The translations under genes were made by a program, and so were the position numbers. A stretch of 64,000 nucleotides of DNA from contig JACQIB010000002.1 in assembly GCA_016198755.1 (NCBI GenBank), positions 1 to 64,000 of the forward strand, written 5' to 3'. The notes under the pieces were generated by a model. That model searched no databases. It saw only the letters and a list, made by a program, of their open reading frames with translations, and was not told where the DNA came from. How positions within the stretch are numbered: position 1 is the first letter of the stretch; each line of letters begins with the position of its first letter. Positions 1,596 to 63,170 of the stretch are shown here, piece by piece. This stretch comes from Candidatus Aenigmatarchaeota archaeon. GTDB lineage: Archaea > Aenigmatarchaeota > Aenigmatarchaeia > Aenigmatarchaeales > JACQIB01.

Positions 1596-2576
1596 ATGGA
1601 AGATGTTCTACAGAAGATAGTTGCTGCCACTGGCCTTGCTATGGAAGAAGTGGAAAGAAGGGTAGCTGAAAAACAAAGGGAACTTTCAGGATTTGTAAGT
1701 AAAGAGGGTGCTGCGTATATTGTAGCAAAAGAAATGGGATTAGATCTTATTGGAACAGGAAAAAAGAGAACTGTGAAGATTTCTGAAATTGTCAATGGAA
1801 ACAACAATGTTGCTTTTGATGCAAGAGTTTTGAGGGTTTTTGAGGCAAGGGAATTTGAGAAAAATGGGAGGAAATTCAGGGTTGGAAACCTGCTTCTTGG
1901 AGATGAAACCGGAACAGTAAGGCTTTCACTCTGGGATGAACAGATTGGGCTTGGAAGCAAGATAGCTGTTGGGGATTGTATAGAAGTTTCAGGAGCTTAT
2001 TCGAAGGAAGGACCTGTAAGCATTGAAGTTAGGCTTGGGAGGAGAGGGAATATAAAAAGAGCTGAAAATGTAGAACTGCCTTCTGCTGAAAATATTCTAA
2101 AAAAGGAAGGAAGCAGCAGGGTTTCTATAGAGGAACTGAAAGAAGGGAAGGTTTGTGAAATAAGAGCTGCACTTATGCAGATTTTTGAAACTGAAAACAT
2201 TTTTGATGTTTGTCCTGAATGTGGAGGGAAGATAAAGTATGAGGGTGGGAAATATTTGTGTGTGAAACACTCTGCTGTTGTGCCTAGGAAGAGTATGGTT
2301 GTGAATGGTGTGGCTGATGACGGCAGTGGGAACATCAGACTTGTAATGTTTGGGGATGTTGGACTGCATTTGCTTGGGTTGACAATGGATCAGGTAATGG
2401 AACGTAGGGGAAAGGTTTTTGACGGGCTGGATTTGATTGGAACAGAATTTGTATTTTCAGGTAGGGTAAGGAAGAATCAGATGTTTGACAGGTTGGAATT
2501 TGTTGTTTCTGGAATTGCAAAATTGGAAATGGAAAAGGAAATTTCCACTCTTATAAATGCTTTATCTGCGAAGTGA
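1596..2576 (+). CDS. rpa: Replication protein A (OB-folds plus Zn finger)
   Basis: OB-fold motifs GDETGTVRLSLW and DDGSGNIRLVMFG; CPEC...CVKH Zn site; upstream of radA. Confidence 0.88.
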   Translation: MEDVLQKIVAATGLAMEEVERRVAEKQRELSGFVSKEGAAYIVAKEMGLDLIGTGKKRTVKISEIVNGNNNVAFDARVLRVFEAREFEKNGRKFRVGNLLLGDETGTVRLSLWDEQIGLGSKIAVGDCIEVSGAYSKEGPVSIEVRLGRRGNIKRAENVELPSAENILKKEGSSRVSIEELKEGKVCEIRAALMQIFETENIFDVCPECGGKIKYEGGKYLCVKHSAVVPRKSMVVNGVADDGSGNIRLVMFGDVGLHLLGLTMDQVMERRGKVFDGLDLIGTEFVFSGRVRKNQMFDRLEFVVSGIAKLEMEKEISTLINALSAK

Positions 2577-2581
2577 GAAAT

Positions 2582-3532
2582 ATGGCAAAGAAAGAAATAG
2601 CTGATTTGACAGGAGTTGGGGAAAAGACTGCTGAAAAACTGAAAGAAGCAGGGTATATAGACATGATGGCTATTGCAGCTGCTTCTCCAGCTGAGCTTGC
2701 GGAAGCTGCTGCACTTGGGGAAGCTACTGCTGCGAAAATAATAGAAGGTGCAAGGGAAGAACTGGAAATAGGATTTGAAACTGCTGCGAAAGTTCTGGAA
2801 AAAAGGCAGAGTGTAATTAGAATAACAACTGGATGCAAGAGTCTTGATACATTGTTGGGAGGGGGGATAGAAACAGGCTCTACAACGGAATTTCATGGGG
2901 CTTTTGGATCCGGTAAAAGCCAGGTTGCACACCAACTTTCAGTTACTGTTCAGCTGCCTGTAGAAAGCGGCGGGGCTGGAGGAGCATGCCTGTATATTGA
3001 TACTGAAGGTACTTTCAGGCCTGAAAGGATTTTACAGATGGCAAAAGCTCTTAATATGGATGGGGATGAAGTTTTGAAAAATATACATGTAGGAAGAGTT
3101 TACAATTCAGATCATCAGTGTGTTATGATTGAAAAAGCTGGGGAGATAATAAGGGAAAAGAATATAAAATTGGTGATTGTGGATTCTGTTACAGCTTGTT
3201 TTAGGTCTGATTTTAGCGGGAGAGGAGAGTTAGCTGCACGCCAGCAGAAACTAAACAGGCATTTGCATACTTTGCAAAGGTTGGCTGATGTTTTTGGAGT
3301 TGCTGTGTATATAACAAACCAAGTAATGGCACGCCCTGATCTCATGTTTGGAGATCCAACTACAGCTATAGGTGGGCATATAATGGGACATTTTGCTGCT
3401 GTTAGAGCTTACTTAAGGAAGAGTAAGGGAGAATTGAGGGTTGCAAGAATTGTTGATAGTCCGAGTCTACCTGAGGGAGAAGCTGTTTTCAGAGTTTGTA
3501 CAGAAGGAGTAAGGGATACTGAAGAGGACTAA
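2582..3532 (+). CDS. radA: DNA repair and recombination protein RadA
   Basis: N-terminal HhH (LTGVGEKTAEKL), Walker A GAFGSGKS, YIDTEGTFRPER, GRGELAARQQ. Confidence 0.97.
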   Translation: MAKKEIADLTGVGEKTAEKLKEAGYIDMMAIAAASPAELAEAAALGEATAAKIIEGAREELEIGFETAAKVLEKRQSVIRITTGCKSLDTLLGGGIETGSTTEFHGAFGSGKSQVAHQLSVTVQLPVESGGAGGACLYIDTEGTFRPERILQMAKALNMDGDEVLKNIHVGRVYNSDHQCVMIEKAGEIIREKNIKLVIVDSVTACFRSDFSGRGELAARQQKLNRHLHTLQRLADVFGVAVYITNQVMARPDLMFGDPTTAIGGHIMGHFAAVRAYLRKSKGELRVARIVDSPSLPEGEAVFRVCTEGVRDTEED

Positions 3533-5442: not shown

Positions 5443-6531
5443 CTAGTTCTGCACAAGCATGGTCCTGACTTTTGGTGTTAGAGCATACATAAAGGCCTTT
5501 CCGCGTGCTTCTCTCTGCACATACCCTTCTCTCATCAAACGCAGAAGAATATTGTTTAAAGAGCGCACAGCATGCTGTTTGCTTGCATATCCTTCCAAAT
5601 CAATGCCATCAACGATTGCAGTCGGAGTTAGCCAATCCTGTTTTGTAAGGGACTCTAGAATCTGGCGCTGTCTATAAGGAAGGTTCTTTATATCAGATTC
5701 TGATGGGGGTTTAGGTGAGAAAACAACTACTGGCTGGTCTAATTTTTCCTCGACTTCCGGAACTTCTCTGTATTCATCTATGTTTTTAGCTTCTATAATA
5801 TCATAGTTTTTCTCTACAGCATCATAAACTAACTTGTCACAAAACTTCATTACCTCGCGTGGGAAGCCTCCTGTACGCTGGTAAATAATATCTACTGCAG
5901 AATCTGTAAAGGGCTTTATGCCGGTTCCGCCCGCGGCTTCTATTCTTTTTTGTATAAGCTTTCTTGTATCTTCTTTTGATAAGGATGTTAATGTTATTCT
6001 GGAAGTTACCCTCTGATCAAGTGTTTGCAGCTCATCTCTCACTTTTTGCTCAAGACTTGGAAGGCCGGCAAGAATTAAGCTAACAGAATCTATCTGGTCT
6101 ACCAGAACGCGCAGCCACTCAAGCACATCCCTGTTTGTTTCATGTGCTTCATCCAGCAAAAACAATAATTGATTTCCTTTAAGGTTCTTGTTTATGTATA
6201 ATTGCAAATTGTAAAGATTTGGGGAGCGTTTCATTATTCTGTCCCATAAACCTATACCAAAAGTATCTGTAAAGATTGTTACAAGCTCCTCTGGGTTTGT
6301 TGGAGGCTTGCTGACATAGAGTTTGCTTATATTTTCAGAAGTGTTTGCTTCAAGCCACTTAAGCATTGTTGTCTTTCCAGAGCCTGTTGGACCTACTATA
6401 ATAGCTATTTTGTGCTTGCTTTCAATATGGTTTAGGGCTGCCTTTACCTGTTCTTCATAGCCTGTGAAAAGCTTTGGATCTATACGTAGAACGAATGGAT
6501 CTTCATTCCAGCCAAATTTTTGATAGTTCAT
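5443..6531 (-). CDS. ExeA/GspA-like AAA+ ATPase with C-terminal winged helix
   Basis: N-terminal FGWNEDPF, Walker A GPTGSGKT, Walker B LLDEAH, TGGFPRE; C-terminal wHTH LLRLMREGYVQREARGKAFMYALT. Confidence 0.85.
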   Translation of the reverse strand: MNYQKFGWNEDPFVLRIDPKLFTGYEEQVKAALNHIESKHKIAIIVGPTGSGKTTMLKWLEANTSENISKLYVSKPPTNPEELVTIFTDTFGIGLWDRIMKRSPNLYNLQLYINKNLKGNQLLFLLDEAHETNRDVLEWLRVLVDQIDSVSLILAGLPSLEQKVRDELQTLDQRVTSRITLTSLSKEDTRKLIQKRIEAAGGTGIKPFTDSAVDIIYQRTGGFPREVMKFCDKLVYDAVEKNYDIIEAKNIDEYREVPEVEEKLDQPVVVFSPKPPSESDIKNLPYRQRQILESLTKQDWLTPTAIVDGIDLEGYASKQHAVRSLNNILLRLMREGYVQREARGKAFMYALTPKVRTMLVQN

Positions 6532-6555
6532 TTCATCACTTTTGCTTGAAAATCG

Positions 6556-6934
6556 TTCATATGAAGGTTTTGTGAAGATAGTGTGAAGTTCACGTGAAGA
6601 TTTTGTTTGTAAATTATAGTTTCCATAGGAAATGGCCCCTTATTCTATATGAATAGCAACAATTTAAAGGTTTTGGAATGCCTTAATTGAGCATTATTAA
6701 TTTAGTATATATAAAGGCATCTATTTTTGTTTGAATTTTAACTTTTGTGAGAATTGTGGGAGTGAAGGTTGTGAATGTGGTGTGAAGTTCATCAAATCTT
6801 CACATAATCTTCACACCTTCACGTCATCTTCACGCGTGAAGATATGAACTTCACGTGAAGGTTTTATATATTGTTAATATATGTGAGCCTAAAAGTGCTA
6901 TATTCACGTGAATGTCACGTGAAGTTCACGTGAA
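6556..6934. repeat. Array of TTCAC/GTGAA boxes and TTCACGTGAA palindromes, many in 11-bp phase
   Basis: RTGAAG at 6561/6572/6583/6594; TCACGTGA at 6590, 6851, 6904, 6915, 6926; 18-bp perfect palindrome ATCTTCACGCGTGAAGAT at 6826-6843. Confidence 0.9.
6619..6635. promoter_or_regulatory. Mini-ORB-like Orc1/Cdc6 binding site candidate
   Basis: GTTTCCATAGGAAATGG resembles the TTCCAnnGGAAA ORB core, without a G-string. Confidence 0.45.
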
Positions 6935-6990
6935 CATACATTGGCTATCTAGGCGGATTTCTATCCGGTATAGAACACTCACGGATTAAA

Positions 6991-7007
6991 ATATAACAGT
7001 GTTATAT
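6991..7007. promoter_or_regulatory. Palindromic operator ATATAACAGTGTTATAT
   Basis: 17-bp palindrome with one central base; the same 15-mer (reverse complement) occurs twice in oriC at 17542 and 17641. Confidence 0.7.
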
Positions 7008-7041
7008 CAGATTTTAATACTTGGACAACAAATATGCTCTC

Positions 7042-7599
7042 ATGCGCCTCTTTATTGGAATTGCCTTGCCAGAAGAACTCAAACCGAAGGCTTTGGAGGT
7101 TCAGAAAGCACTCGGAAGCACTGGAGAAAAAATAAAGCTGGTTGAACCAGAAAATTTACATATAACAGTAAAGTTTTTAGGAGAGGTTGAAAAAGAGCGT
7201 TTAGACGGTATAAAGACTGTTTTAAGTTCTATATTGAAAAAAAGAAGTGTTTTTAGCCTTAAAATACATGGAATATCATATCTTCCCAATAAAAAGTTCC
7301 TTCGTACTGTGGCACTATCTGTACTTGATGAAAACAACATTTTAAAACAAATAGTGGATGATATAAACTCTTATTTGGCTAAAATAGGTATAAAAGATGA
7401 TGTAAGAGATTATAAAGCTCATTTAACACTTGCAAGAGTTAAAGGCACAAAAGATAGAATAAATATATTGCTATCTTTAATGTCATTTGAAGATATTGAT
7501 ATCGGGGAGGTTGAAGTTACTACCTTTGATCTTATGGAATCGATGTTAACAGAATCTGGACCTATATACAATAAAATAGCATCTTTTACTATAAAATAG
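7042..7599 (+). CDS. thpR: RNA 2',3'-cyclic phosphodiesterase / 2'-5' RNA ligase (2H family)
   Basis: MRLFIGI N-terminus; two HxT motifs (NLHITVKFLG, AHLTLAR). Confidence 0.92.
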   Translation: MRLFIGIALPEELKPKALEVQKALGSTGEKIKLVEPENLHITVKFLGEVEKERLDGIKTVLSSILKKRSVFSLKIHGISYLPNKKFLRTVALSVLDENNILKQIVDDINSYLAKIGIKDDVRDYKAHLTLARVKGTKDRINILLSLMSFEDIDIGEVEVTTFDLMESMLTESGPIYNKIASFTIK

Positions 7600-7826: not shown

Positions 7827-8123
7827 CTACTTATTATTCTTTATAGATTTTTTAATACTATATAAGGAAAGGATTTTTTCAATAGTAACGTTCTTTTTGT
7901 CATCGGGGAGCTTAATGATCTTTGCTCTTAATCCAAACTGGTTTATAGTCCTTATTTCAACAAAATAGGACATATACGTCTTTATTATTGTAGAAACGCG
8001 CTCTGGATGTAGGTTTAGGGCTCTGGCAATACCTCTTATATGTATGCCAGTGTCTCCTGCTTCTTTTAAAACTTCAAGTATCTTATAAATATTTCTCTTG
8101 GTTTGTGGCTGAATTGGCTTCAT
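7827..8123 (-). CDS. Small basic winged-helix/HTH protein
   Basis: GIHIRGIARALNLHPERVSTII HTH; GGAGG site before ATG at 8123. Confidence 0.7.
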   Translation of the reverse strand: MKPIQPQTKRNIYKILEVLKEAGDTGIHIRGIARALNLHPERVSTIIKTYMSYFVEIRTINQFGLRAKIIKLPDDKKNVTIEKILSLYSIKKSIKNNK

Positions 8124-8195
8124 ATTAAACCTCCTTCTGAAACTACTGAAATATATAACATAATAAAACACTTGTCATATTATGTTTGGCAAACT

Positions 8196-13994: not shown

Positions 13995-15200
13995 CTATTC
14001 CTGCAGGTCTTTTGTAAGCAAAACGCTCATAGACTCAGGAACTGACAATCTTGGCGCTGAACGCATGCCTATTATCCATTTTACCCCATGCTGGCTTGAA
14101 AAGCTCAGCAGTTTTTGATCAATTTCGCCGTCAAAAATCAGGGTTTCTGGCTTTATGTCTCTCATAGCATTGAACATTTCGCGCACAGGAACTTTTCCAA
14201 GCACGTTTCCTTCGGAATCCAATAGACATGCAGCACGTGTACCTGTTATTTCATTTACTATTTCCCTGAAAAATGCTGCTTTGTCTGGCTCTATAGATAC
14301 CTTTGGAAGCTGTGCTGGTTCTTGCCTTTCTATGTGTTCCGGGCGTTCAGTGTGCTCAACGCGCCTTTCACGTTTTTCAGCTGAAATTTCTTTTGCCTGA
14401 TTAAGCGGAACGCGTTCGCGCAGGGCTTTGAAAATCTCTTTCTTTGTTAATTCCTCTACTTCCTTTTCCTCAGGAGCGCGTGCTACAAAATCAACTTCTG
14501 CAACAGCTGTCAACTCCCTTAGTATAAGATCCCCACCCCTGTCTCCATCGAGGAATGCTGTTATTTCTTTTTCTTTTGCTAAATCAGCTACTTGTGGAGG
14601 TACAGATGTTCCCTCTATTGCAACCACGTTCTTTATTCCGCATCTTAATAGGTTGACAACATCTGCCCTGCCCTCTACAATGACAACATTGTCTGACTGG
14701 TTTACTGCTGGACCAGCCGGCAGACCTCTCCACTGAACAACTTCAGCAGACCGTATTGATTCCTTTATTTGATCTGTCATCTCTTGGGTTTCCATTGTGT
14801 CCTGGAACATTTTACCTAAGAGCTCTTTTGCACGCTCAATAACATATTTCCTCTTGGAAGCCCTTACATCTTCTATATTTTCTACTATAATTTTGGCGTT
14901 GCATGGACCAACTCTTTCTATGGTTTCTATGCAGGCTGCTATCAGGGCTGTTTCAGAACTATCAAGAGATGAAGGAATCGATATCTCACCTGATGCTTTG
15001 CCTGTTTTCATAACAAGCTCTACATCAATTCTTCCTATCCTCCCTGTTTTCTGAAGCTCCCTTAAATCCATATCCTGCCCTAACAACCCTTCAGTCTGTC
15101 CAAATAGAGCTCCAATAACGTCTGGTTTTTCTACTGTTCCCTCTGAATTGAATTTTGCTATTATTGTGTATTTTGAAGTTGACTGAGCTAGTTTTCCCAT
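13995..15200 (-). CDS. dnaG: Archaeal DnaG (TOPRIM; exosome-associated)
   Basis: VEKPDVIGALFGQTEGLLG, VVIVEGRADV, FLDGDRGG. Confidence 0.96.
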   Translation of the reverse strand: MGKLAQSTSKYTIIAKFNSEGTVEKPDVIGALFGQTEGLLGQDMDLRELQKTGRIGRIDVELVMKTGKASGEISIPSSLDSSETALIAACIETIERVGPCNAKIIVENIEDVRASKRKYVIERAKELLGKMFQDTMETQEMTDQIKESIRSAEVVQWRGLPAGPAVNQSDNVVIVEGRADVVNLLRCGIKNVVAIEGTSVPPQVADLAKEKEITAFLDGDRGGDLILRELTAVAEVDFVARAPEEKEVEELTKKEIFKALRERVPLNQAKEISAEKRERRVEHTERPEHIERQEPAQLPKVSIEPDKAAFFREIVNEITGTRAACLLDSEGNVLGKVPVREMFNAMRDIKPETLIFDGEIDQKLLSFSSQHGVKWIIGMRSAPRLSVPESMSVLLTKDLQE

Positions 15201-17493: not shown

Positions 17494-17882
17494 ACTCCCC
17501 CCTTTAATTCTACTGGAAATGAGGTCTTTTATTATATTTAGTATAACACTGTTATATGAAGTAAAGGTTCTCTGCTGCAGAAATATAAAGATTTAAAAAC
17601 AATATCCATAAGAAACCATGGCGGGGGCAAAAACAATCAATATAACACTGTTATATTCCAGTTCACACACCAAAATATGAAGTAAATAGCTTCACATAAC
17701 CTTCATTAATGTTCACAAATAGAAAAATCGATTAAACCCCTCCGTTTCCAATGAAAACCATCAAAAACAGAACCCCCTTGTTTCACATGGAAATTTATAT
17801 ACCTTCATTTCCAATCCAGTTGTTCACGTTTGGTTAAGGTTAAATATGTTCACGTACTGGAATCATTGCACTAGAAATTGAG
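17494..17882. other. Replication origin oriC upstream of cdc6
   Basis: ORB-like elements with G-strings: 17497-17520 (-, ATTTCCAGTAGAATTAAAGGGGGG), 17605-17627 (+), 17737-17757 (-), 17773-17794 (-); AT-rich intervals between them. Confidence 0.88.
17542..17657. repeat. Two copies of palindrome TATAACACTGTTATA inside oriC
   Basis: Exact copies at 17542-17556 and 17641-17655; the second extends to 19 bp, 17639-17657. Confidence 0.85.
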
Positions 17883-17891
17883 GTGATTCCA

Positions 17892-19088
17892 ATGCCAGAG
17901 CTACAACAAATATTCAATCAATTTATTGAATCAAAACCAATCTTTGCAAACAGATCAATATTGTCTCTTTCCTTTACACCAATAACAATACCACATAGGG
18001 AAAATGAGATAGAAGGCCTAGGTAGAATCTTAGCTCCTGCATTAAAGGGAGGTAAACCAAGCAATGTATTTGTATACGGAAAGACAGGAACAGGCAAAAC
18101 CCTTGTTTCTAAGTATGTTACTGAAGAGCTAGAGAAAGCATCAAAAACAACAAACCAAAAGCTCAAGACAGTTTACATAAACTGTAAGTTAAGACATTCA
18201 GCTGACACGGAGTATAGGCTTTTAGCCTATATAATAAAGGAACTGGGGGGCGATGTACCCTTTACAGGACTTCCAACAGACAAGATATTCTCAACTTTCT
18301 ATGAGTTTGTTGAACGTGAATCACAATGCCTTATCCTTATAATAGATGAAATAGACTCTTTGATTAAAAAGACAGGAGACGGGGTTCTATACAGCCTTAC
18401 AAGAATGAATCAGGACCTAAAGAAGTCAAAAATATGCATTATAGGCATCACAAATGACCTGTCTTTTATAGAAACACTTGATCCAAGGGTAAGATCTTCC
18501 CTGAATGAAGAGGAAATTGTATTTTCTCCATATAATGCTTTCCAGCTGCAGGAAATACTCAGGCAGAGGGCAAATATAGCGTTTCCAAACAGTTCAATGG
18601 AAGCAGGCGTAATAGAAAAGTGTTCTGGTTTGGCAGCTCAGGAACATGGAGATGCACGCAGAGCACTTGATCTGTTAAGGGTTGCAGCAGAGATAGCTGA
18701 AAGGAGAGGGGAACCTGTAATAAAAATTTCCAATGTGGATGAAGCACAGGAAAAGATAGATACAGACAGGGTTACAGAAGCTGTTAAGATGCAGCCGCGT
18801 CAATCACAGGCTGTTTTGAACTCTTTAATGGAAGCTTCAGCAGGAAAAAAAGATGTGGAAACCGGAGACGTTTTTGAAAAATACACAAACTTCTGTTCTA
18901 TCCATCACATAAAACCCTTAACTCACAGAAGAATTTCAGACTTAATTGCAGAGCTTGAGCTCTTTGGAATAATAAGCTCAAAGGTGGTTTCTAAAGGGAG
19001 ATATGGCAGGACACGAGTTATTTCCCTTTCCATAAACGATGAGATAAAAGTAAAGGTGCAGACTATCCTAAAGGAAAGCTTTGGTTAA
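17892..19088 (+). CDS. cdc6: Orc1/Cdc6 replication initiator
   Basis: GKTGTGKT, IIDEID, LDPRVRSSL, HGDARRALDLLR, C-terminal wHTH SKGRYGRTR; GAGGTGA ribosome-binding site. Confidence 0.97.
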   Translation: MPELQQIFNQFIESKPIFANRSILSLSFTPITIPHRENEIEGLGRILAPALKGGKPSNVFVYGKTGTGKTLVSKYVTEELEKASKTTNQKLKTVYINCKLRHSADTEYRLLAYIIKELGGDVPFTGLPTDKIFSTFYEFVERESQCLILIIDEIDSLIKKTGDGVLYSLTRMNQDLKKSKICIIGITNDLSFIETLDPRVRSSLNEEEIVFSPYNAFQLQEILRQRANIAFPNSSMEAGVIEKCSGLAAQEHGDARRALDLLRVAAEIAERRGEPVIKISNVDEAQEKIDTDRVTEAVKMQPRQSQAVLNSLMEASAGKKDVETGDVFEKYTNFCSIHHIKPLTHRRISDLIAELELFGIISSKVVSKGRYGRTRVISLSINDEIKVKVQTILKESFG

Positions 19089-19097
19089 GGAGCTGTT

Positions 19098-20081
19098 ATG
19101 TCCAACATAGAAAGGCTTACAAAAGCAGGCATTTTAACAGACCCAGGCGTTGCTGAATTAGTTGAAAAACTATCTGAAAAACAGCTGGACTTTTTTATAA
19201 AATCAAAAAACAAGCCCCTAATCTTACAAAAAATTCATTTCAAATCATTTCAGCCAAAAATTGAAATAAAAACAGACATGGAAAAGAGGAAAAGTATACA
19301 GGATTTTATAAATATTCTAAACTCACGTTTTTCCCTCTTACAAAGAATACTAATGTCAAAATCAAAGGACAGCAACTTAGTTTCAATAAAAAGCGCTTCT
19401 GAAGGGAACATTTCCATTATAGGACTGATAAAAACCATATCGGAAAATAATGGAATTTTCAGGACAGAACTCGAAGATCAAACAGGCACAATAAAAGCTT
19501 CTGTCCCCAAAAATTTACCCGGAAAATTTGAAAGGTTTTTTCTGGATGAAGTTGTGCAGATTTCCGGAAGATTTTCATCAGGAGTTTTATACGCAGAAAA
19601 AATAGAATGGCCTGATATACAGTTAACAGAATATAAAAAACCAGACACAACTTCAACAGTCTTTATCTGTTTTTCCTCCTCTATTATTACACTTCCGGAA
19701 AAGGCAGATTCCTGCAATATTATAATATCAAACCAGCCTGTCCAAGCCACATTTCAGCAGGCAATAACTATAACCAACACATCCGCAGCCAAAATAAATG
19801 GCATAAATTTACTTTTCTATATGGAAAATGTAAAGGAAACAACTGATAAATTCAGCATAACAGAAAAAGAGTTTATTTTAGAATGTTTAAAGCGAAGGCA
19901 CTTCCTCAAGGAACCCTGCCTCCAATCAGGAATAATAGAAGAACAACCAGATTATTTCATTTTTCAAACACAAACACCTTTCACAGATTCCTACAGAGGA
20001 ACTATGATAATAGGTCTGCCAAAAGAAACATTTTGTTTACTTGATTTTGTTGACAGAAGTGCAGAATTCGGTACAATATAA
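19098..20081 (+). CDS. Degenerate DNA polymerase D small subunit (DP1)-like / B-subunit-like protein
   Basis: OB fold (IIGLIKTI...ELEDQTGTI), remnants CLKRRHF and IIEEQPDYF; position after cdc6; phosphoesterase metal motifs absent; only 327 aa. Confidence 0.72.
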   Translation: MSNIERLTKAGILTDPGVAELVEKLSEKQLDFFIKSKNKPLILQKIHFKSFQPKIEIKTDMEKRKSIQDFINILNSRFSLLQRILMSKSKDSNLVSIKSASEGNISIIGLIKTISENNGIFRTELEDQTGTIKASVPKNLPGKFERFFLDEVVQISGRFSSGVLYAEKIEWPDIQLTEYKKPDTTSTVFICFSSSIITLPEKADSCNIIISNQPVQATFQQAITITNTSAAKINGINLLFYMENVKETTDKFSITEKEFILECLKRRHFLKEPCLQSGIIEEQPDYFIFQTQTPFTDSYRGTMIIGLPKETFCLLDFVDRSAEFGTI

Positions 20082-20164
20082 GAAAAAATACCCTACACTG
20101 GAGGATAGAAAACCTCTTAAATAGTTTTCAACACCTATATTCGTCAGCTTCTTTGGTGGGGAAC

Positions 20165-22846
20165 ATGAAAGCTCAGGTATTAGATTGCGACTACACAATG
20201 CTGAACGGCAAACCTCTAATAAGGCTCTTTTGCAAAGATGAAAGCGGAGGCACAGTCTGTTTTTTCTATGAAAATTTCCTTCCATATTTTTATGTTCAGT
20301 CTGAAAATATTGAAACCGCAAAAAAGGAAATAGAAAAAACTGCAAAAGCAGAAGTTGTAGAAAAGTTTTTACCAATAGGATACGGCCCTAAAGTAAAACT
20401 ATTAAAAGTAATAGGCAAAGACCCCTCAAAAATACCTGACATTAAAGAAACTATTTCCAAGGTTTCAGGTATTTCGAAATTTTTCGAGTCTGATATTCTT
20501 TTCAAATACAGGTTCATGGTAGATAACAATATTAAAGGTATGGGATGGATTGATGTTGACTGCTCAAGAACTATAACAAAAACCGTAAAATGTCCCGCTT
20601 ATACTGCAAAATCATTCAAGCCGATAGAAGTCATAAAAAATGCTCCATTGCGCTATATGTCCATAGACATAGAATGTGTAAGCAAAACAGAAACAATACC
20701 AGATATGAATAAAGATCCTATAGTAATAATTTCACTCAATTTTTTCCCGGATTATAAGGGAGCAAAAAGTATGGTTATGGTTGCAAAGACATCACCCAAA
20801 TTTATAGAAAACCAGTTTAATTTTGTTTCAGAAGAGGAAATGATGAAGAGATTTTTAGAAATACTTGAGGATTATGATCCTGATGTTGTAACAGGCTATA
20901 ACATAAACAACTTCGACTTACCGTACATAATTACCCGCCTAGAAAAACTAAATATAAGAAAAGACCTTGGAAGAGCAGACAAGCCAGTAATGCTGAAAAA
21001 GATGCAAATGGGCTATACAGCCTCTGTACTTGGAAGGGTTATTGTAGATACTTATGAAATAATAAAGAAGGATGTTTACCTTCACCTTAAAAGATATGAT
21101 CTAGGTACTGTAGCAAGAAGCCTGCTTAAAATGGAAAAAATAGATATTGGAGGCATAAAGGAAATAACGAGGTACTGGAAAGGTGATCCTAAGGCAATGG
21201 GACCACTAATACAATATGCAAATGTTGACGCTGAGCTTGCAATGAGACTTTTAATAGATAAAGGAATATTGGACAAATTTTTTGAAATATCAAAACTTTC
21301 CGGTTTGACACTACAGGATTCCCTCGGTGGTCAGTCTCAGAGGCTTGAGTGCAGACTTTTGCATGAATTTAGAGACAGAGATTTTGTTATGCCAAGCAAG
21401 ACATCCGGCCCAGAATTAGAAGCACTAAAAGAAAAGAGAGAAAAATATGGACTTAAGGGAGCTCTTGTTCTGGAACCTGTTGTTGGTTTACATACAGACG
21501 GATCCATACTTGTTCTTGACTTTACTTCACTATACCCATCTATAATAAGAAAATTTAACATATGCCCCACAACAATGCTTGTTTCAGGCGATGAGAAATG
21601 CAATGTTTCTCCAACTGGAACGAAGTTTGTCCTTCCAGAAGTCAGGCAGGGCATACTCCCAAAAATTGTCCATGATCTCATTTCAACGCGAGCTGCAGTA
21701 AGGAAGCAATATAGAGCAGAAACAGATCCGGAAAAGAAAAGAATACTTGATGCAAAGCAATTTGCTCTTAAAGTCCTTGCGAACTCCCTTTACGGATACA
21801 CGGGATACCTTAAAGCCAGACTATACGTGATGGATATAGCAAACACAATAACAGGATACGGAAGAGATACAATAGTTAACACAACAAAACTCATAGAACA
21901 AACATATTCAACAAAAGTTATTTATTCTGATACAGATTCTGTCTTTGTCAAGACAGGTATAACTAATCTGGAAAAGGCTCAGGAAAAAGGCGAAGAAATG
22001 TCCAGATTTGTCACAGAAAAATTAAACGGATTAGAGCTGAAGTTCGAAAAAATATTCAAGAGTTTCTTAATTCTTACTAAAAAAAGATATGCCGGCTGGT
22101 ATTTTGAAAAGCAGGGAAACGACTGGAAAACAAAGGTTGATATGAAGGGTATAGAGACTGTGAGAAGGGATTGGTGTGAGCTTACATCAGAATCCATGGA
22201 AAAAACTATAGACATACTTCTAAAAGAGCAGGATATTAAAAAAGCTGCCCACTTTATACGCGGAATAATACAGGATTTGAATGATGGTAAAATACCTCTT
22301 GAGAAACTTACAATAGTTAAAGGTGTGTCAAAATCTTTGTCCAGTTATGATGGAATACAGCCTCATGTAGAGCTTGCGAAGAAGATAATGATGAGGGATC
22401 CAACACGCGGAAGTCTTGTTGGAGAGAGATTGGGATTTGTAATAATAAAAGGAAACCAGATGCTTTCCAAAAGGGCAGAAGAACCTTCTTTTGTGAAGGA
22501 ACATAATCTAGAGATTGATTCCCAGTATTATCTTGAAAATCAACTTCTTCCCCCACTACAAAGGATTTTTGAAGCATGCGGCGTTGAAAAAACAGAACTT
22601 ATCGAAGGTAACAGACAGAAAAATCTCACGGAAATACTTTCTGGCAGAATATTAACTCCAGCCCAGACAGTACTAGATACATGGGACAGCATATCCTGTT
22701 CAAAGTGTTCATGGAATTACAGAAGGCCACCCCTCTCAGGTTCATGTCCAAACTGCAACAGTCAGATATTTTTCCGTTCCAACGGTTCTATAGGAAAATT
22801 TGTTACAAATTTCTTCATTATAGACCAGCAAAAAACAGCATTGTAG
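20165..22846 (+). CDS. polB: Family B DNA polymerase, Pol delta-like, with C-terminal Zn finger
   Basis: Exo DIEC and GYNINNFD; DFTSLYPS, KVLANSLYGY, YSDTDS, KKRY, KGIETVRRD; CSKC...CPNC tail. Confidence 0.95.
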   Translation: MKAQVLDCDYTMLNGKPLIRLFCKDESGGTVCFFYENFLPYFYVQSENIETAKKEIEKTAKAEVVEKFLPIGYGPKVKLLKVIGKDPSKIPDIKETISKVSGISKFFESDILFKYRFMVDNNIKGMGWIDVDCSRTITKTVKCPAYTAKSFKPIEVIKNAPLRYMSIDIECVSKTETIPDMNKDPIVIISLNFFPDYKGAKSMVMVAKTSPKFIENQFNFVSEEEMMKRFLEILEDYDPDVVTGYNINNFDLPYIITRLEKLNIRKDLGRADKPVMLKKMQMGYTASVLGRVIVDTYEIIKKDVYLHLKRYDLGTVARSLLKMEKIDIGGIKEITRYWKGDPKAMGPLIQYANVDAELAMRLLIDKGILDKFFEISKLSGLTLQDSLGGQSQRLECRLLHEFRDRDFVMPSKTSGPELEALKEKREKYGLKGALVLEPVVGLHTDGSILVLDFTSLYPSIIRKFNICPTTMLVSGDEKCNVSPTGTKFVLPEVRQGILPKIVHDLISTRAAVRKQYRAETDPEKKRILDAKQFALKVLANSLYGYTGYLKARLYVMDIANTITGYGRDTIVNTTKLIEQTYSTKVIYSDTDSVFVKTGITNLEKAQEKGEEMSRFVTEKLNGLELKFEKIFKSFLILTKKRYAGWYFEKQGNDWKTKVDMKGIETVRRDWCELTSESMEKTIDILLKEQDIKKAAHFIRGIIQDLNDGKIPLEKLTIVKGVSKSLSSYDGIQPHVELAKKIMMRDPTRGSLVGERLGFVIIKGNQMLSKRAEEPSFVKEHNLEIDSQYYLENQLLPPLQRIFEACGVEKTELIEGNRQKNLTEILSGRILTPAQTVLDTWDSISCSKCSWNYRRPPLSGSCPNCNSQIFFRSNGSIGKFVTNFFIIDQQKTAL

Positions 22847-60884: not shown

Positions 60885-63170
60885 ATGTTAAAAGAACCGC
60901 AGCCAGAGGGAGTGAAGCTAAAGGTAGGAGAATTGACAGGAAGGGAGGATTTTGGAAGGGGTATTGCTAGATTGGATGCTAATACAATGAAAGCCATAAG
61001 TGTAAAAGAAGGGGATGTTATTGAGATTAGAGGAAAGAGAACAACAGCAGCAATAGCTGTGCGTTCTTATCCGGCGGATGTGGGTCTGAATATTGTAAGG
61101 ATTGACGGGCTTGTAAGGAAGAATTGCGGAACTTCTATCGGGGAAGGTGTTATTGTTGTCAAGGCAAATGCAAAGGAAGCAAAGAAAATTGTTTTGGCTC
61201 CGGCTGAAAAAGGGTATATACTCAGGGTTTCCCCCAACCTTTTGAAGCAAAATCTTTTCATGAGACCAATGGTAAAGGGAGATCTTATAATTGCAAATCC
61301 AGTTTTCCGCAGCCGCAGGGGAGGAGGAGATGTTTTTGAACAGTTTTTTGGCGTTCCAATGGAGGAAGTTTTCCTTCCTTTAGGAACAGAAACAAGGTTG
61401 GCTGTTGTTAAAACAGTTCCTGAAGGAGCAGTGCAAATAACTGAAATGACAGAGCTTGAGCTTTTGCCGGAAGCAACAGAACTTGAGGAGGGGAAAGTCC
61501 AGACAGTAACATATGAGGATATTGGAGGACTAGGAGAGATTGTGCCAAAAATCCGCGAGATGATAGAAGTTCCATTGCGTCACCCTGAAGTTTTTGAGCG
61601 TTTAGGAGTAGAACCTCCAAAGGGGGTTTTGCTGCATGGTCCGCCTGGTTCAGGAAAAACTTTGCTTGCAAAAGCAGTTGCAAATGAATCCGGTGCCTAT
61701 TTTATTTCAGTTGCAGGCCCAGAACTGGTGAGCAAATGGTATGGTGGTTCTGAGGAGAATCTTAGGAAAGTATTTGAAGAGGCTGAAAAGAATGCACCCA
61801 CAATTATTTTCTTTGACGAGATTGATGCTATAGCCCCAAAGAGGGAGGAGGTTTCAGGGGAGGTTGAAAGGAGAATGGTTTCTCAGTTACTAACTTTAAT
61901 GGACGGTCTAAAAAGCAGGGGAAGAACAATAGTAATTGCAGCTACTAACAGGCCAAATAGCTTGGATCCAGCTCTGAGAAGGGGAGGGAGGTTTGACAGG
62001 GAACTGGAGATACCAGTGCCTGATAAAAAGGGCAGGAAAGAGATTTTGCAGATTCACACACGCCATATGCCTATGGATGGAGTGGATCTTGATAAATTAG
62101 CTGAGATAACATATGGTTATGTGGGGGCTGACGTTTCAGCTCTTGTAAAGGAAGCTGCAATGCATGCTTTGCGAAGGGTTTTACCAGAGGTTTCTGCCTT
62201 AAAGGAGGATGAAGCACTTCCAAAAGAATTGCTGGAAAAACTAAAAGTTACAAGTGAGGACTTTGAATTTGCAATGCGCATGGTTCAGCCTTCTGCGATG
62301 AGGGAAGTTCTAATAGAGATACCTAAAGTTAAATGGGCTGATGTTGGAGGATTGGAAAATGTAAAGGAACTTCTGAAGGAAGCTGTTGACTGGCCGCTTA
62401 AAAATGCGGATGCTTTCAAACGCATTGGGATAAAGCCGCCAAAGGGAATAATGCTTTATGGTCCGCCCGGATGCGGGAAAACATTTATTGTGAAAGCTCT
62501 TGCAAACGAAGCTGGTGCAAACTTTATTTCAGTAAAGGGTCCTGAATTGCTTTCCAAATGGGTTGGGGAAAGTGAACAGCATTTAAGGGATGTTTTCCGC
62601 AGAGCAAAACAAGTCGCTCCATGTATAATTTTCTTTGATGAAATAGATTCTCTAGCTCCAAGAAGGGGGTCTGATGCAGGGAATAGAGTAACAGAACAGG
62701 TTGTTTCCCAGCTGCTTACAGAAATGAATGGAATAGAGAACATGGAAGGTGTAATGGTTATAGCAGCCACAAACAGGCCGGATATTATTGATCCAGCACT
62801 CCTAAGGCCAGGGAGGTTTGACAGGTTAATTTATGTCCCTGCACCAGATGAAAAAACAAGGCTGGAAATTTTAAAGGTTCATACAAAATCAATGCCGCTT
62901 TCGAAAGATTTATCTATGGAGAAACTGGCAAAACAGACAGACGGATACTCAGGAGCGGATTTGGAGGCTGTTGTGAGAGAAGCCGGATTAAATGCTTTGA
63001 GGGAAAATATGAAAGCAAAGGAAATAACGAAAAAACACTTTGACGAATCTCTGAAGGAAATAAAACCATCAATAACAGAAGATATATTCATGAAATACCA
63101 GAAAATAGTTGAAGATGTAAAGAAAACAAAGCTGGAAGAACATGAAAAATCAAGCAGATATATAGGGTGA
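60885..63170 (+). CDS. cdc48: CDC48/VAT AAA+ ATPase
   Basis: N-domain plus two AAA modules ([16 protein letters not shown]; FFDEID; RPGRFD). Confidence 0.97.

Follow-up and report, generated by a model that had tools for sequence, protein, structure and literature searches.

Within a 64,000-nucleotide stretch of archaeal DNA (the window, i.e., bases 1-64000 of contig C6 in a six-contig genome of 890,842 bp that is 89% complete), the 489-bp intergenic region 6532-7020 separates two divergent genes, encoding an AAA+ ATPase on the minus strand and a LigT-like protein on the plus strand, and contains an array of short boxes repeated with a period of 11 bp. The question raised by this locus is which protein would bind such an array, and to what end. 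The host, one of a group of tiny archaea of groundwater, was placed in the Aenigmatarchaeota, a DPANN archaeal phylum, by the names on its close homologs. The sequencing runs listed for this DNA are DNA runs from groundwater metagenomes, four of which may represent the source sample, and no RNA run is among them. A first-pass annotation, made from the letters of the window, had taken the boxes for a helically phased array with a core like that of parS, the site of the bacterial protein ParB, and had proposed that they form a cooperative loading platform for a DNA-binding polymer; it had suggested a genome-wide count of the core, a search for ParB, SegB, and AspA, and a comparison with related genomes, and had also considered that the repeats might encode a repetitive peptide. 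This annotation overlooked the adjacent Orc-like ATPase and the canonical orc1 origin located 11 kb away, both of which are central to the reading favoured here. In this reading, which is held with about even confidence, the array would serve the Orc-like ATPase as its cognate platform of phased binding sites, wrapping the promoter of the ATPase gene itself and linked to orc1 and its origin.

Structure of the array

The repeated unit is the 5-bp half-site GTGAA, mostly found as GTGAAG, which is used in three arrangements, i.e., as direct repeats exactly 11 bp apart, as a palindrome in which TTCAC abuts GTGAA, and as a tail-to-tail pair, GTGAA-G-TTCAC. The region 6532-7020 holds 19 strict GTGAA/TTCAC half-sites, with eight same-strand pairs spaced at 11 bp and four at 22 bp, and hexamers with no more than one mismatch from GTGAAG number 21, as against the 4.3 expected at the window's own rate. 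These boxes fall into four blocks (Table 1). The last two boxes of Block A enclose the palindrome TTCACGTGAA (6589-6598), and the block as a whole sits between a TATA-like element (~6611-6618) and the start codon of the ATPase. A further box, GTTCAT, is found at 6787, and the two perfect palindromes of Block C are ATCTTCACGCGTGAAGAT, of 18 bp, at 6826-6843, and CTTCACGTGAAG, of 12 bp, at 6849-6860, with a further GTGAAG at 6836.

The array stands out sharply from the genomic background. The sequence TCACGTGA occurs five times in the window, always within 6590-6933, against an expectation of 0.25, a number that none of 100 shuffles reached, and only one of its six copies in the whole genome lies elsewhere. 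All four genomic copies of TTCACGTGAA are in the array. The pentamers GTGAA/TTCAC are found 1284 times in the genome, i.e., 0.58 per 400 bp, and the densest 400-bp windows, C6:6601 and C6:6701, hold 15 each, followed by C6:17501/17601, with six half-sites, upstream of orc1. When composite sites are considered (near-palindromes, 11-bp direct pairs, and tail-to-tail pairs), 14 of the 24 in the genome belong to the array, and the other ten are scattered single near-palindromes, so that no regulon of boxes was found beyond the array and orc1. Other windows with five half-sites per 400 bp (C5:185801 and the overlapping C1:58101/C1:58201) proved to be coding sequence, in which the half-sites have no arrangement; this inspection covered three of four places and excluded C5:32001 and C3:219601.

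The description given by the first-pass annotation is confirmed. All of its box coordinates, its 11-bp spacing, and its 18-bp palindrome are exact in the sequence, the window is indeed poor in CpG (observed/expected 0.48), and the count that it suggested yields the excess given above. Every box that it listed is real, but the list was incomplete, given that the boxes at 6747, 6756, 6762, 6771, 6782, 6836, and 6849-6860 had been missed. No open reading frame (ORF) of at least 40 aa is found within 6532-6998, and therefore no repetitive peptide is encoded by the array. A scan of positions 6300-7200 against Rfam returned only RUF4, at chance level (E 0.92, 17.5 bits versus a gathering score of 55).

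Table 1. Coordinates of the array, its blocks, and the surrounding features (window positions, except where a contig is named).
Feature	Position	Strand	Remarks
AAA+ ATPase gene, 362 aa, C-terminal winged helix	5443..6531	-	ORF; array directly upstream
Block A	6561..6599	+	ATGAAG 6561, GTGAAG 6572, 6583, 6594; direct, exactly 11 bp apart
AT-rich spacer	6600..6746	.	40-bp windows of 17-35% GC
Block B	6747..6787	+	GTGAGA 6747, GTGGGA 6756, GTGAAG 6762, GTGAAT 6771, GTGAAG 6782
Block C	6798..6860	-	four CTTCAC boxes, 6798 + 6809 and 6817 + 6828; two perfect palindromes
Short AT-rich segment with family-conserved element TTGTTAAT-N-GTGAG	6861..6902	.	invariant and conserved alignment columns
Block D	6903..6935	.	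tandem palindromic boxes TTCACGTGAA 6903, GTCACGTGAA 6914, TTCACGTGAA 6925, 11 bp apart
Palindrome TATAACAGTGTTATA	6992..7006	.	15-36 nt upstream of the LigT start; promoter-type element
LigT-like 2'-5' RNA ligase/phosphoesterase gene	7021..7599	+	Pfam LigT_PEase 1.3e-22; divergent from ATPase
Small winged helix-turn-helix (wHTH) protein gene	7827-8171		in window
Replication/repair genes (OB-fold protein, RadA, DnaG-like Toprim protein, family B DNA polymerase)	1596-3532, 13995-15200, 20153-22846		
Candidate oriC with origin recognition boxes (ORBs)	17494..17882	.	four ORBs with G-strings (17499, 17603, 17737, 17773)
Canonical Orc1/Cdc6 gene	17883-19088	+	TIGR02928 412 bits vs cut-off 181; Pfam Cdc6_C, Cdc6_lid, AAA
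(T)ATAACA(C/G)TGTTAT(A) sites in the window	6992-7006, 17542-17556, 17641-17655		
(T)ATAACA(C/G)TGTTAT(A) sites elsewhere	C1:58824, C2:69541, C3:183426, C3:239763, C5:24039, C5:98182, C6:69628, C6:108048		

The identity of the boxes with parS, on which the earlier interpretation turned, can be assessed at this point. The decamer TTCACGTGAA is truly the central 10 bp of the parS consensus, the papers that contain this decamer deal mostly with parS and ParB, and the array is located near an origin, as parS sites are. However, the full parS 16-mer (TGTTTCACGTGAAACA) has no match in the array at up to three mismatches, the two matches in the window lying elsewhere, at positions 1079 and 18308, and what is repeated in the array is a 5-bp half-site that occurs in many arrangements. 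The absence of a visible ParB, which the first-pass annotation had noted in the window, extends to the genome as assembled (89% complete), where the ParB part of the suggested search returned no match to ParB_N (PF02195), a domain present in only four of 41 genomes of the order; the same search was positive in 10 of 14 known genomes used as a control. Both ParA-like genes are on other contigs. The parS/ParB interpretation is thus largely refuted, and the probability that the array is a centromere of this type is very close to nil. On the other hand, the more general part of the same interpretation, i.e., a cooperative platform for a DNA-binding protein, with one protein per turn, fits an array that is unique in the genome, has a phase of 11 bp, and is conserved down to its single boxes, beside an ATPase whose nearest structural relatives (Orc1/Cdc6, MuB, and TnsC) assemble on DNA.

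Conservation of the ATPase gene and its array

Of 40 relatives within the order, 36 have an ortholog of the ATPase, with 48-67% identity, as do 177 of the 251 genomes of a phylum-wide sample; the gene is present in only one of 50 genomes of family f16 and in none of 14 of family f19, and a few small families are also without it. The genomes with the gene have one full-length ortholog each, with weaker additional matches in some cases, and the neighbouring genes are conserved. A plasmid or viral iteron-Rep module, which would be expected in a mobile context with a patchy distribution, was considered and rejected in view of this widespread single ortholog and its conserved neighbours.

The comparison with related genomes, which had been suggested as a check, shows that the ATPase gene and the array go together in all 20 of the orthologous loci of the order. 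In 19 of these loci, 17-28 half-sites are found within 520 nt upstream of the ATPase start, even though one of them (L018) offers just 273 nt of upstream sequence; in the remaining locus (L015, G037:C1), the array is found behind an inserted LAGLIDADG ORF. This insertion, which encodes a homing endonuclease of 255 aa, occupies positions 1-770 nt upstream of the ATPase start, between the gene and its array and promoter, on the same strand. When the same-strand spacings of the 20 loci are pooled, a spacing of 11 bp is seen in 112 pairs, 10 bp in only 12, 12 bp in 16, and 22 bp in 49.

Six genomes of the same family were aligned, their ATPases sharing 63-67% identity with that of the window, and the invariant columns are the TTCAC/GTGAA cores, including the box columns of Block A and the TTCAC columns of Block C, and Block D is kept as three boxes in register. 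By contrast with the boxes, the sequences between them diverge, and the spacer at 6600-6746 is conserved neither in sequence nor in length, which is the mark of purifying selection on the boxes and not on the spacers. The GTGAGA box of Block B is conserved as the variant TTTGTGAGA (6743-6752 in the window), which has the same fixed place in the arrays of the order. This variant may represent a second class of site, as may the TGTGAGAGTTT-like motifs of one locus (L052, G139:C1), where at least five of them are found beyond the GTGAA array, some 400-750 nt upstream of the ATPase.

The decamer TTCACGTGAA follows the gene closely, given that 64 of its 71 copies in 16 genomes of the order precede the ATPase gene at a distance below 1 kb; these distances, like the linkage outside the order described below, are among several counts made by hand from tabulated positions. 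Dense arrays are also found in distant families, with 24-26 half-sites per 600 nt in f18, 38 in f31, 32 in f27, 27 in f29, 23 in f22, 18 in both f20 and f17, and 14 in f26. In family f11, one array (L077, G124:C16:6650-7500) extends over at least 850 bp and consists partly of higher-order tandem copies of a multi-box unit.

The boxes are also arranged around the core promoter. In family f3, a TTCACGTGAA palindrome stands on each side of AAGCTTAAATAT, and the one nearer the gene falls between the TATA box and the start codon; a strict bracket of box, TATA, and box just before the ATPase start is found in eight of the 20 loci, with looser versions in most of the others.

The adjacent ATPase

By sequence, the 362-aa protein can be assigned only to the broad ExeA/AAA_22 superfamily. 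It passes the Pfam AAA_22 cut-off (8.3e-15, 55.7 bits versus 27) and matches the ExeA-like model TIGR03015 at 8.5e-31, with 107 bits, which is below the equivalog cut-off of 324.5, and its best sequence match among solved structures is MuB (9e-5). Clustering at 50% gives 99 representatives of its own family at E <=1e-30, within an ExeA-like superfamily of 9,390 representatives at E <=1e-10. The Orc1/Cdc6 model TIGR02928 does not match it, the only matches being at 17940-19028 (412 bits) and in a weak stretch at 62436, and the protein has neither Pfam Cdc6_C nor Cdc6_lid, with only weak, generic winged-helix matches in its C-terminal domain. To judge from these profiles, then, it is not a member of the Orc1/Cdc6 family. 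Homologs are at present labelled either "AAA family ATPase" or "ExeA, type II secretion ATPase", and the latter label is almost certainly misleading, which is a direct consequence for the annotation of this gene.

The fold leads elsewhere. An AlphaFold2 model built with 25 homologs (pLDDT 85) has an AAA+ base, a lid, and a C-terminal winged helix, which is the architecture of Orc1/Cdc6. The top Foldseek matches are the archaeal Orc1/Cdc6 structures 1w5t, 2qby, 1fnn, and 2v1u (E 1e-11 to 1e-10), and VIA-align gave Z scores of 18.2-19.5 for Cdc6/Orc1 over residues 4-362, with the winged helix included, followed by MuB (17.9), TnsC (17.7), and RFC (~16). The full-length matches are 1w5t, 2qby, 2v1u, and 7jgr_G (Z 17.8-19.5), and 1fnn matches only the AAA+ part of the model (residues 5-256, Z 19.4). 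The motifs expected of a working ATPase are intact, given that Walker A, Walker B (DEAHE), a candidate arginine finger (DQR), and GGFPRE (sensor 2) are invariant in the 25 homologs, as is the recognition helix of the winged helix, HA(I/V)RS(I/V)NNIL.

The first residue of this helix is His (HAxRSxNN) in the families with large GTGAA arrays and Asn in f14, f15, f21, f24, and f30, where boxes are few or take the form ATGAA(A)/GTGAAA. The difference may reflect covariation of protein and DNA or the effect of a single clade, and the change in the boxes is not a clean one.

The conserved winged helix bears on a further alternative, i.e., that the array is an ordinary operator field of another transcription factor, such as a small wHTH protein, with the ATPase being merely the regulated gene. 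The boxes do bracket TATA elements, several distant families have few of them, and in nine loci of family f3 an ortholog of the small wHTH gene lies across the array from the ATPase gene, in divergent orientation. This replacement is confined to f3, however, and elsewhere the neighbour is LigT, which tblastn placed across the array or intergenic region from the ATPase gene in 19 loci, that of the window included, and which is the ancestral occupant of this divergent position. Moreover, 20-40 phased sites are far beyond the needs of a simple operator, and the ATPase carries a highly conserved winged helix of its own. An operator field of this kind is thus very unlikely.

The array and the origin at orc1

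The canonical Orc1/Cdc6 gene is single in the genome, and the candidate oriC upstream of it contains, in addition to its four ORBs, two ATAACACTGTTAT palindromes and six TTCAC half-sites. A position weight matrix (PWM) was built from 30 ORBs of relatives, with the genome of the window excluded, and gave 13 hits above 12 bits in the whole genome, four of them at 17499-17793 and none in 6532-7020. Given these hits, and as the orc1 genes of relatives are likewise preceded by this ORB cluster and AT-rich stretch, the predicted ORB-type oriC is placed at 17.5-17.9 kb rather than at the array. A distance of 10.6-11.4 kb separates the array from the ORB cluster and from orc1, so that the array is proximal to the origin.

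The same boxes are found at orc1 itself. Its last 260 nt of upstream sequence contain at least one half-site in 23 of 25 loci, with a mean of 3.6 versus approximately 0.37 expected, i.e., about tenfold, and in 12 of the 25 the G-string of an ORB is fused to a box (GGGGTT-CAyGTGAAG), followed by a TATA box and often by CTTCAC. The two genes are also linked, being on one contig in 16 genomes of the order, 11.2-22.9 kb apart and divergent in 15 of the 16, and, by hand comparison, in 45 more genomes outside the order, at distances of 0.35-58 kb. In the genome with the shortest of these distances (G124), the gap of only 350 nt between the 3' end of the ATPase gene and orc1 holds an ORB/AT-rich origin with no boxes, and the box array, of ~850 bp or more, is a separate module upstream of the ATPase.

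The ATPase, the high-scoring type of Orc1, and the enrichment of the decamer share one phyletic pattern. The high-scoring Orc1 is found in none of 50 genomes of f16 and in none of 14 of f19, in which at least two copies of TTCACGTGAA occur in two of 50 and none of 14, respectively, and 28 of 32 genomes of the window's order have at least three copies. Five of the 64 genomes of f16 and f19 were checked and carry only a divergent Orc1/Cdc6 match, of 156-262 bits, and these lineages may run a different initiation set-up. One genome (G018) had been taken for a case of orc1 without the ATPase and was dropped, as its contig ends ~400 nt past the wHTH/arcTGT genes, where the ATPase would be expected.

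Two further alternatives depend on these relationships. The first is that the array is a second replication origin, with the Orc-fold ATPase as its dedicated initiator and the spacer at 6600-6746 as the unwinding element, a replicator-initiator pair on the model of oriC2/Orc1-3 or oriC3/WhiP in Sulfolobus. An archaeal origin is defined as an AT-rich region flanked by repeats beside an initiator gene, with diversity in both the repeats and the initiators (PMC4010727), and the locus resembles this, given the repeats on both sides of a spacer of 17-35% GC, the adjacent gene with an Orc1/Cdc6 fold, and an arrangement that is conserved throughout the class. The spacer even contains a mini-ORB-like core, TTCCATAGGAAAT at 6621-6633, with no proper G-string, which scores 18.4 bits with the ORB-core PWM at +90 from the ATPase start (p ~0.01 versus shuffles). 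A comparable core is significant in only five of 18 loci, however, and the spacer itself is unconserved. A well-formed ORB origin is also located only 11 kb away, which is very close for a 0.9-Mb genome, the ATPase is outside the Orc1/Cdc6 family by sequence, and five distant families have a region of 85-160 nt between the ATPase and LigT genes, which lacks the AT-rich spacer and is too short for an origin. The GC and AT skews give no replication signal either way, as they follow gene orientation, with no replichore signal, in the window and in 10-kb bins on all contigs of at least 50 kb. On balance, a second origin is rather unlikely.

The second alternative takes the boxes for a variant form of mini-ORB to which the canonical Orc1/Cdc6 binds, in which case the array would be a sink for Orc1 or an Orc1-controlled promoter of the ATPase gene. 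The box and the local ORB core share the half-site rTGAAr, as GTGAAG in the former and as the right half, ATGAAA, of the latter, boxes are the best ORB-core PWM match in many arrays, and both the fusion of boxes to ORBs upstream of orc1 and the shared phyletic pattern would fit an Orc1 binder. At a single origin, neighbouring but different sites are bound by Orc1 paralogs (PMC3089459), a precedent that was also counted in its favour. The boxes of the array nevertheless lack the G-string characteristic of ORBs in this lineage, the full ORB PWM is silent in 6532-7020, and the array tracks the ATPase gene rather than orc1, as G124 illustrates with a box-free ORB origin at orc1 and its array upstream of the ATPase. 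Orc1 as the cognate binder is thus quite unlikely.

A possible role for the ATPase-array pair

In the favoured reading, the array is neither a ParB/parS centromere nor the ORB-type chromosomal origin, and the platform of the ATPase may be pictured as follows. The winged helix, probably helped by the AAA+ domain, would read the 5-bp half-site GTGAA, as in Orc1, whose winged helix and AAA+ domain read DNA together (PMC3089459). The repeat of 11 bp would put successive protomers on one face of the helix, so that ATP-dependent contacts between AAA+ domains would be possible, which may result in a cooperative nucleoprotein assembly over ~370 bp. As the array includes the core promoter of the ATPase gene, whose TATA element is bracketed or followed by boxes, such an assembly would be expected to control, and most likely to repress, the transcription of its own gene. 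The same boxes beside the TATA box of orc1 and the ORB proximal to it may then couple the ATPase to the expression of the initiator or to the neighbouring origin.

A number of observations weigh against this role. The assignment of the binder to the ATPase draws on adjacency and co-occurrence in the sequences, and Orc1 itself could be the binder instead, given that the palindrome TTCACGTGAA of the boxes is similar to the core of the local ORBs (TTCCAyrnGAAA) and that boxes are the top match of the ORB-core PWM in several arrays; the small wHTH protein, the divergent neighbour in f3, could also be the binder. With hhalign, the ATPase and the co-resident Orc1 family align only in the AAA+ core (residues 14-199, probability 27%, E 7e-4). 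In families f12, f14, f21, f23, and f30, of which one or two genomes each were sampled, the spacer between the ATPase and LigT genes is the one of only 85-160 nt already mentioned, and those of f14 and f21, read base by base, have approximately three boxes each, around TATA elements; a large platform is therefore not essential to the gene everywhere. Nor do boxes always accompany orc1, as they are absent upstream of it in two of the 25 loci (L043 and L045) as well as in G124, and at least three genomes, all with long contigs, do not keep the ATPase and orc1 genes linked (G050, >82 kb; G169, >116 kb; G141, >31 kb). Finally, the relatives are not phylogenetically independent, and the joint absence in f16 and f19 may represent one or two events, or these two families may simply be divergent.

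A bolder extension of the favoured reading, which is unlikely on the whole and yet worth setting out, is that the pair forms an undescribed, class-wide, origin-proximal module of chromosome control, in which an Orc-shaped AAA+ protein would polymerise at one protomer per turn. Such a module might act as a co-initiator or licensing factor at the composite box-ORB sites, as a sink for the initiator in the manner of datA, or as a segregation mark, and in the last case it would be, by analogy, an archaeal functional counterpart of parS/ParB built from an initiator-type ATPase.

Genomic surroundings

The array and orc1 are surrounded by an island of replication and repair genes, which includes, in addition to Orc1 and PolB, an OB-fold protein, RadA, and a DnaG-like Toprim protein (Table 1). 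The orc1 and family B DNA polymerase genes are separated by a plus-strand ORF of 327 aa (19098-20081), for which Pfam gave no match at E <=1e-5.

A palindrome with the core ATAACAsTGTTAT was considered as a link between the array and orc1, given that it is found in the window at both places, and was rejected, as it has 13 sites in the genome, mostly at ordinary promoters. These sites, defined by the 13-bp core with a few flanking bases, are intergenic in 11 cases. At most of the sites, the nearest flanking ORF is 16-60 nt away, and four of the palindromes are overlapped or abutted by that ORF. In most relatives, one or two copies are kept upstream of orc1, often followed by AAGAAATAAAGGT, and this palindrome of 13-15 bp, (T)ATAACA(C/G)TGTTAT(A), may be a promoter or regulator motif in its own right.

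Comparison with known systems

To our knowledge, replication control and segregation are essentially unstudied in DPANN archaea, and we know of no factor that does the job of DnaA-box clusters or of parS/ParB in most archaea. The literature on Aenigmatarchaeota origins, on Orc1, and on TTCACGTGAA, which was covered in part, yielded no description of either the ATPase or the array. The pair is amenable to direct tests, since it consists of a 362-aa protein and a 370-bp target with a 5-bp code and strict helical phasing, and is found in most families of the class, usually within tens of kb of orc1, with sites that touch both the orc1 promoter and an ORB. It could show how an initiator-type AAA+ protein has been re-used for regulation, or as a second origin-associated machine.

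The most obvious comparison is with the archaeal replicator-initiator pairs, i.e., Orc1/Cdc6 or WhiP with ORBs or mini-ORBs, as they are described in PMC4010727 and PMC3089459. As in these pairs, partly dyad-symmetric repeats are found in both orientations around an AT-rich stretch, the gene immediately downstream of the array encodes an AAA+ protein that ends in a winged helix, the locus is part of a replication island, and the core of the box resembles that of the local ORB. Unlike them, the ATPase of the array is outside Orc1/Cdc6 by sequence, the boxes have no G-strings and are strictly phased at 11 bp, a canonical ORB origin with an orc1 of its own is present 11 kb away, and the array is reduced to about three boxes in some families.

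A precedent for a regulatory role is found in Orc1-2 of Sulfolobus/Saccharolobus, which PMC6061795 and PMC9738581 present as a non-initiator Orc1 paralog and a global regulator of transcription. In this case, a protein of the Orc1 type, with AAA+, initiator-specific motif (ISM), and winged-helix elements, serves the control of genes and not initiation, as is proposed here for the ATPase. On the other hand, Orc1-2 is a true member of Orc1/Cdc6 and acts at dispersed promoter motifs of a DNA-damage regulon, whereas the present array is one large phased block at the ATPase's own gene, with additional sites at orc1.

The likeness to ParB-parS is limited to the 10-bp palindrome TTCACGTGAA and its clustering near an origin, as no ParB was found in this genome, the 16-bp parS is unmatched in the array, and the half-sites are arrayed in phase at 11 bp. 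A further parallel is provided by the clusters of DnaA boxes outside oriC, such as the autoregulated dnaA promoter and the datA and DARS loci of Escherichia coli. In these clusters, too, an AAA+ protein of the initiator clade, with a C-terminal DNA-binding domain, has boxes at its own promoter and at origin-proximal loci that are not origins, and a control of initiator availability may be envisaged by analogy. The domain of life, the protein family, and the box are all different, however, and titration or control through the nucleotide state would be hypothetical for the array.

Finally, the AAA_22 ATPases of the ExeA/MuB/TnsC type are the closest to the ATPase by sequence, as the matches to AAA_22, TIGR03015, and MuB indicate, and the structures of MuB and TnsC are, by the titles of their entries, filaments on DNA. 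These proteins have neither the C-terminal winged helix of the present family nor a cognate array of phased boxes, and the ATPase family is, unlike them, a vertically inherited core gene of an archaeal class. The pair formed by the ATPase and its array differs from the replicator-initiator pairs, from Orc1-2, and from the DnaA-box clusters in the protein family, the strict phasing, the grammar of the half-sites, and the presence of a canonical origin nearby.

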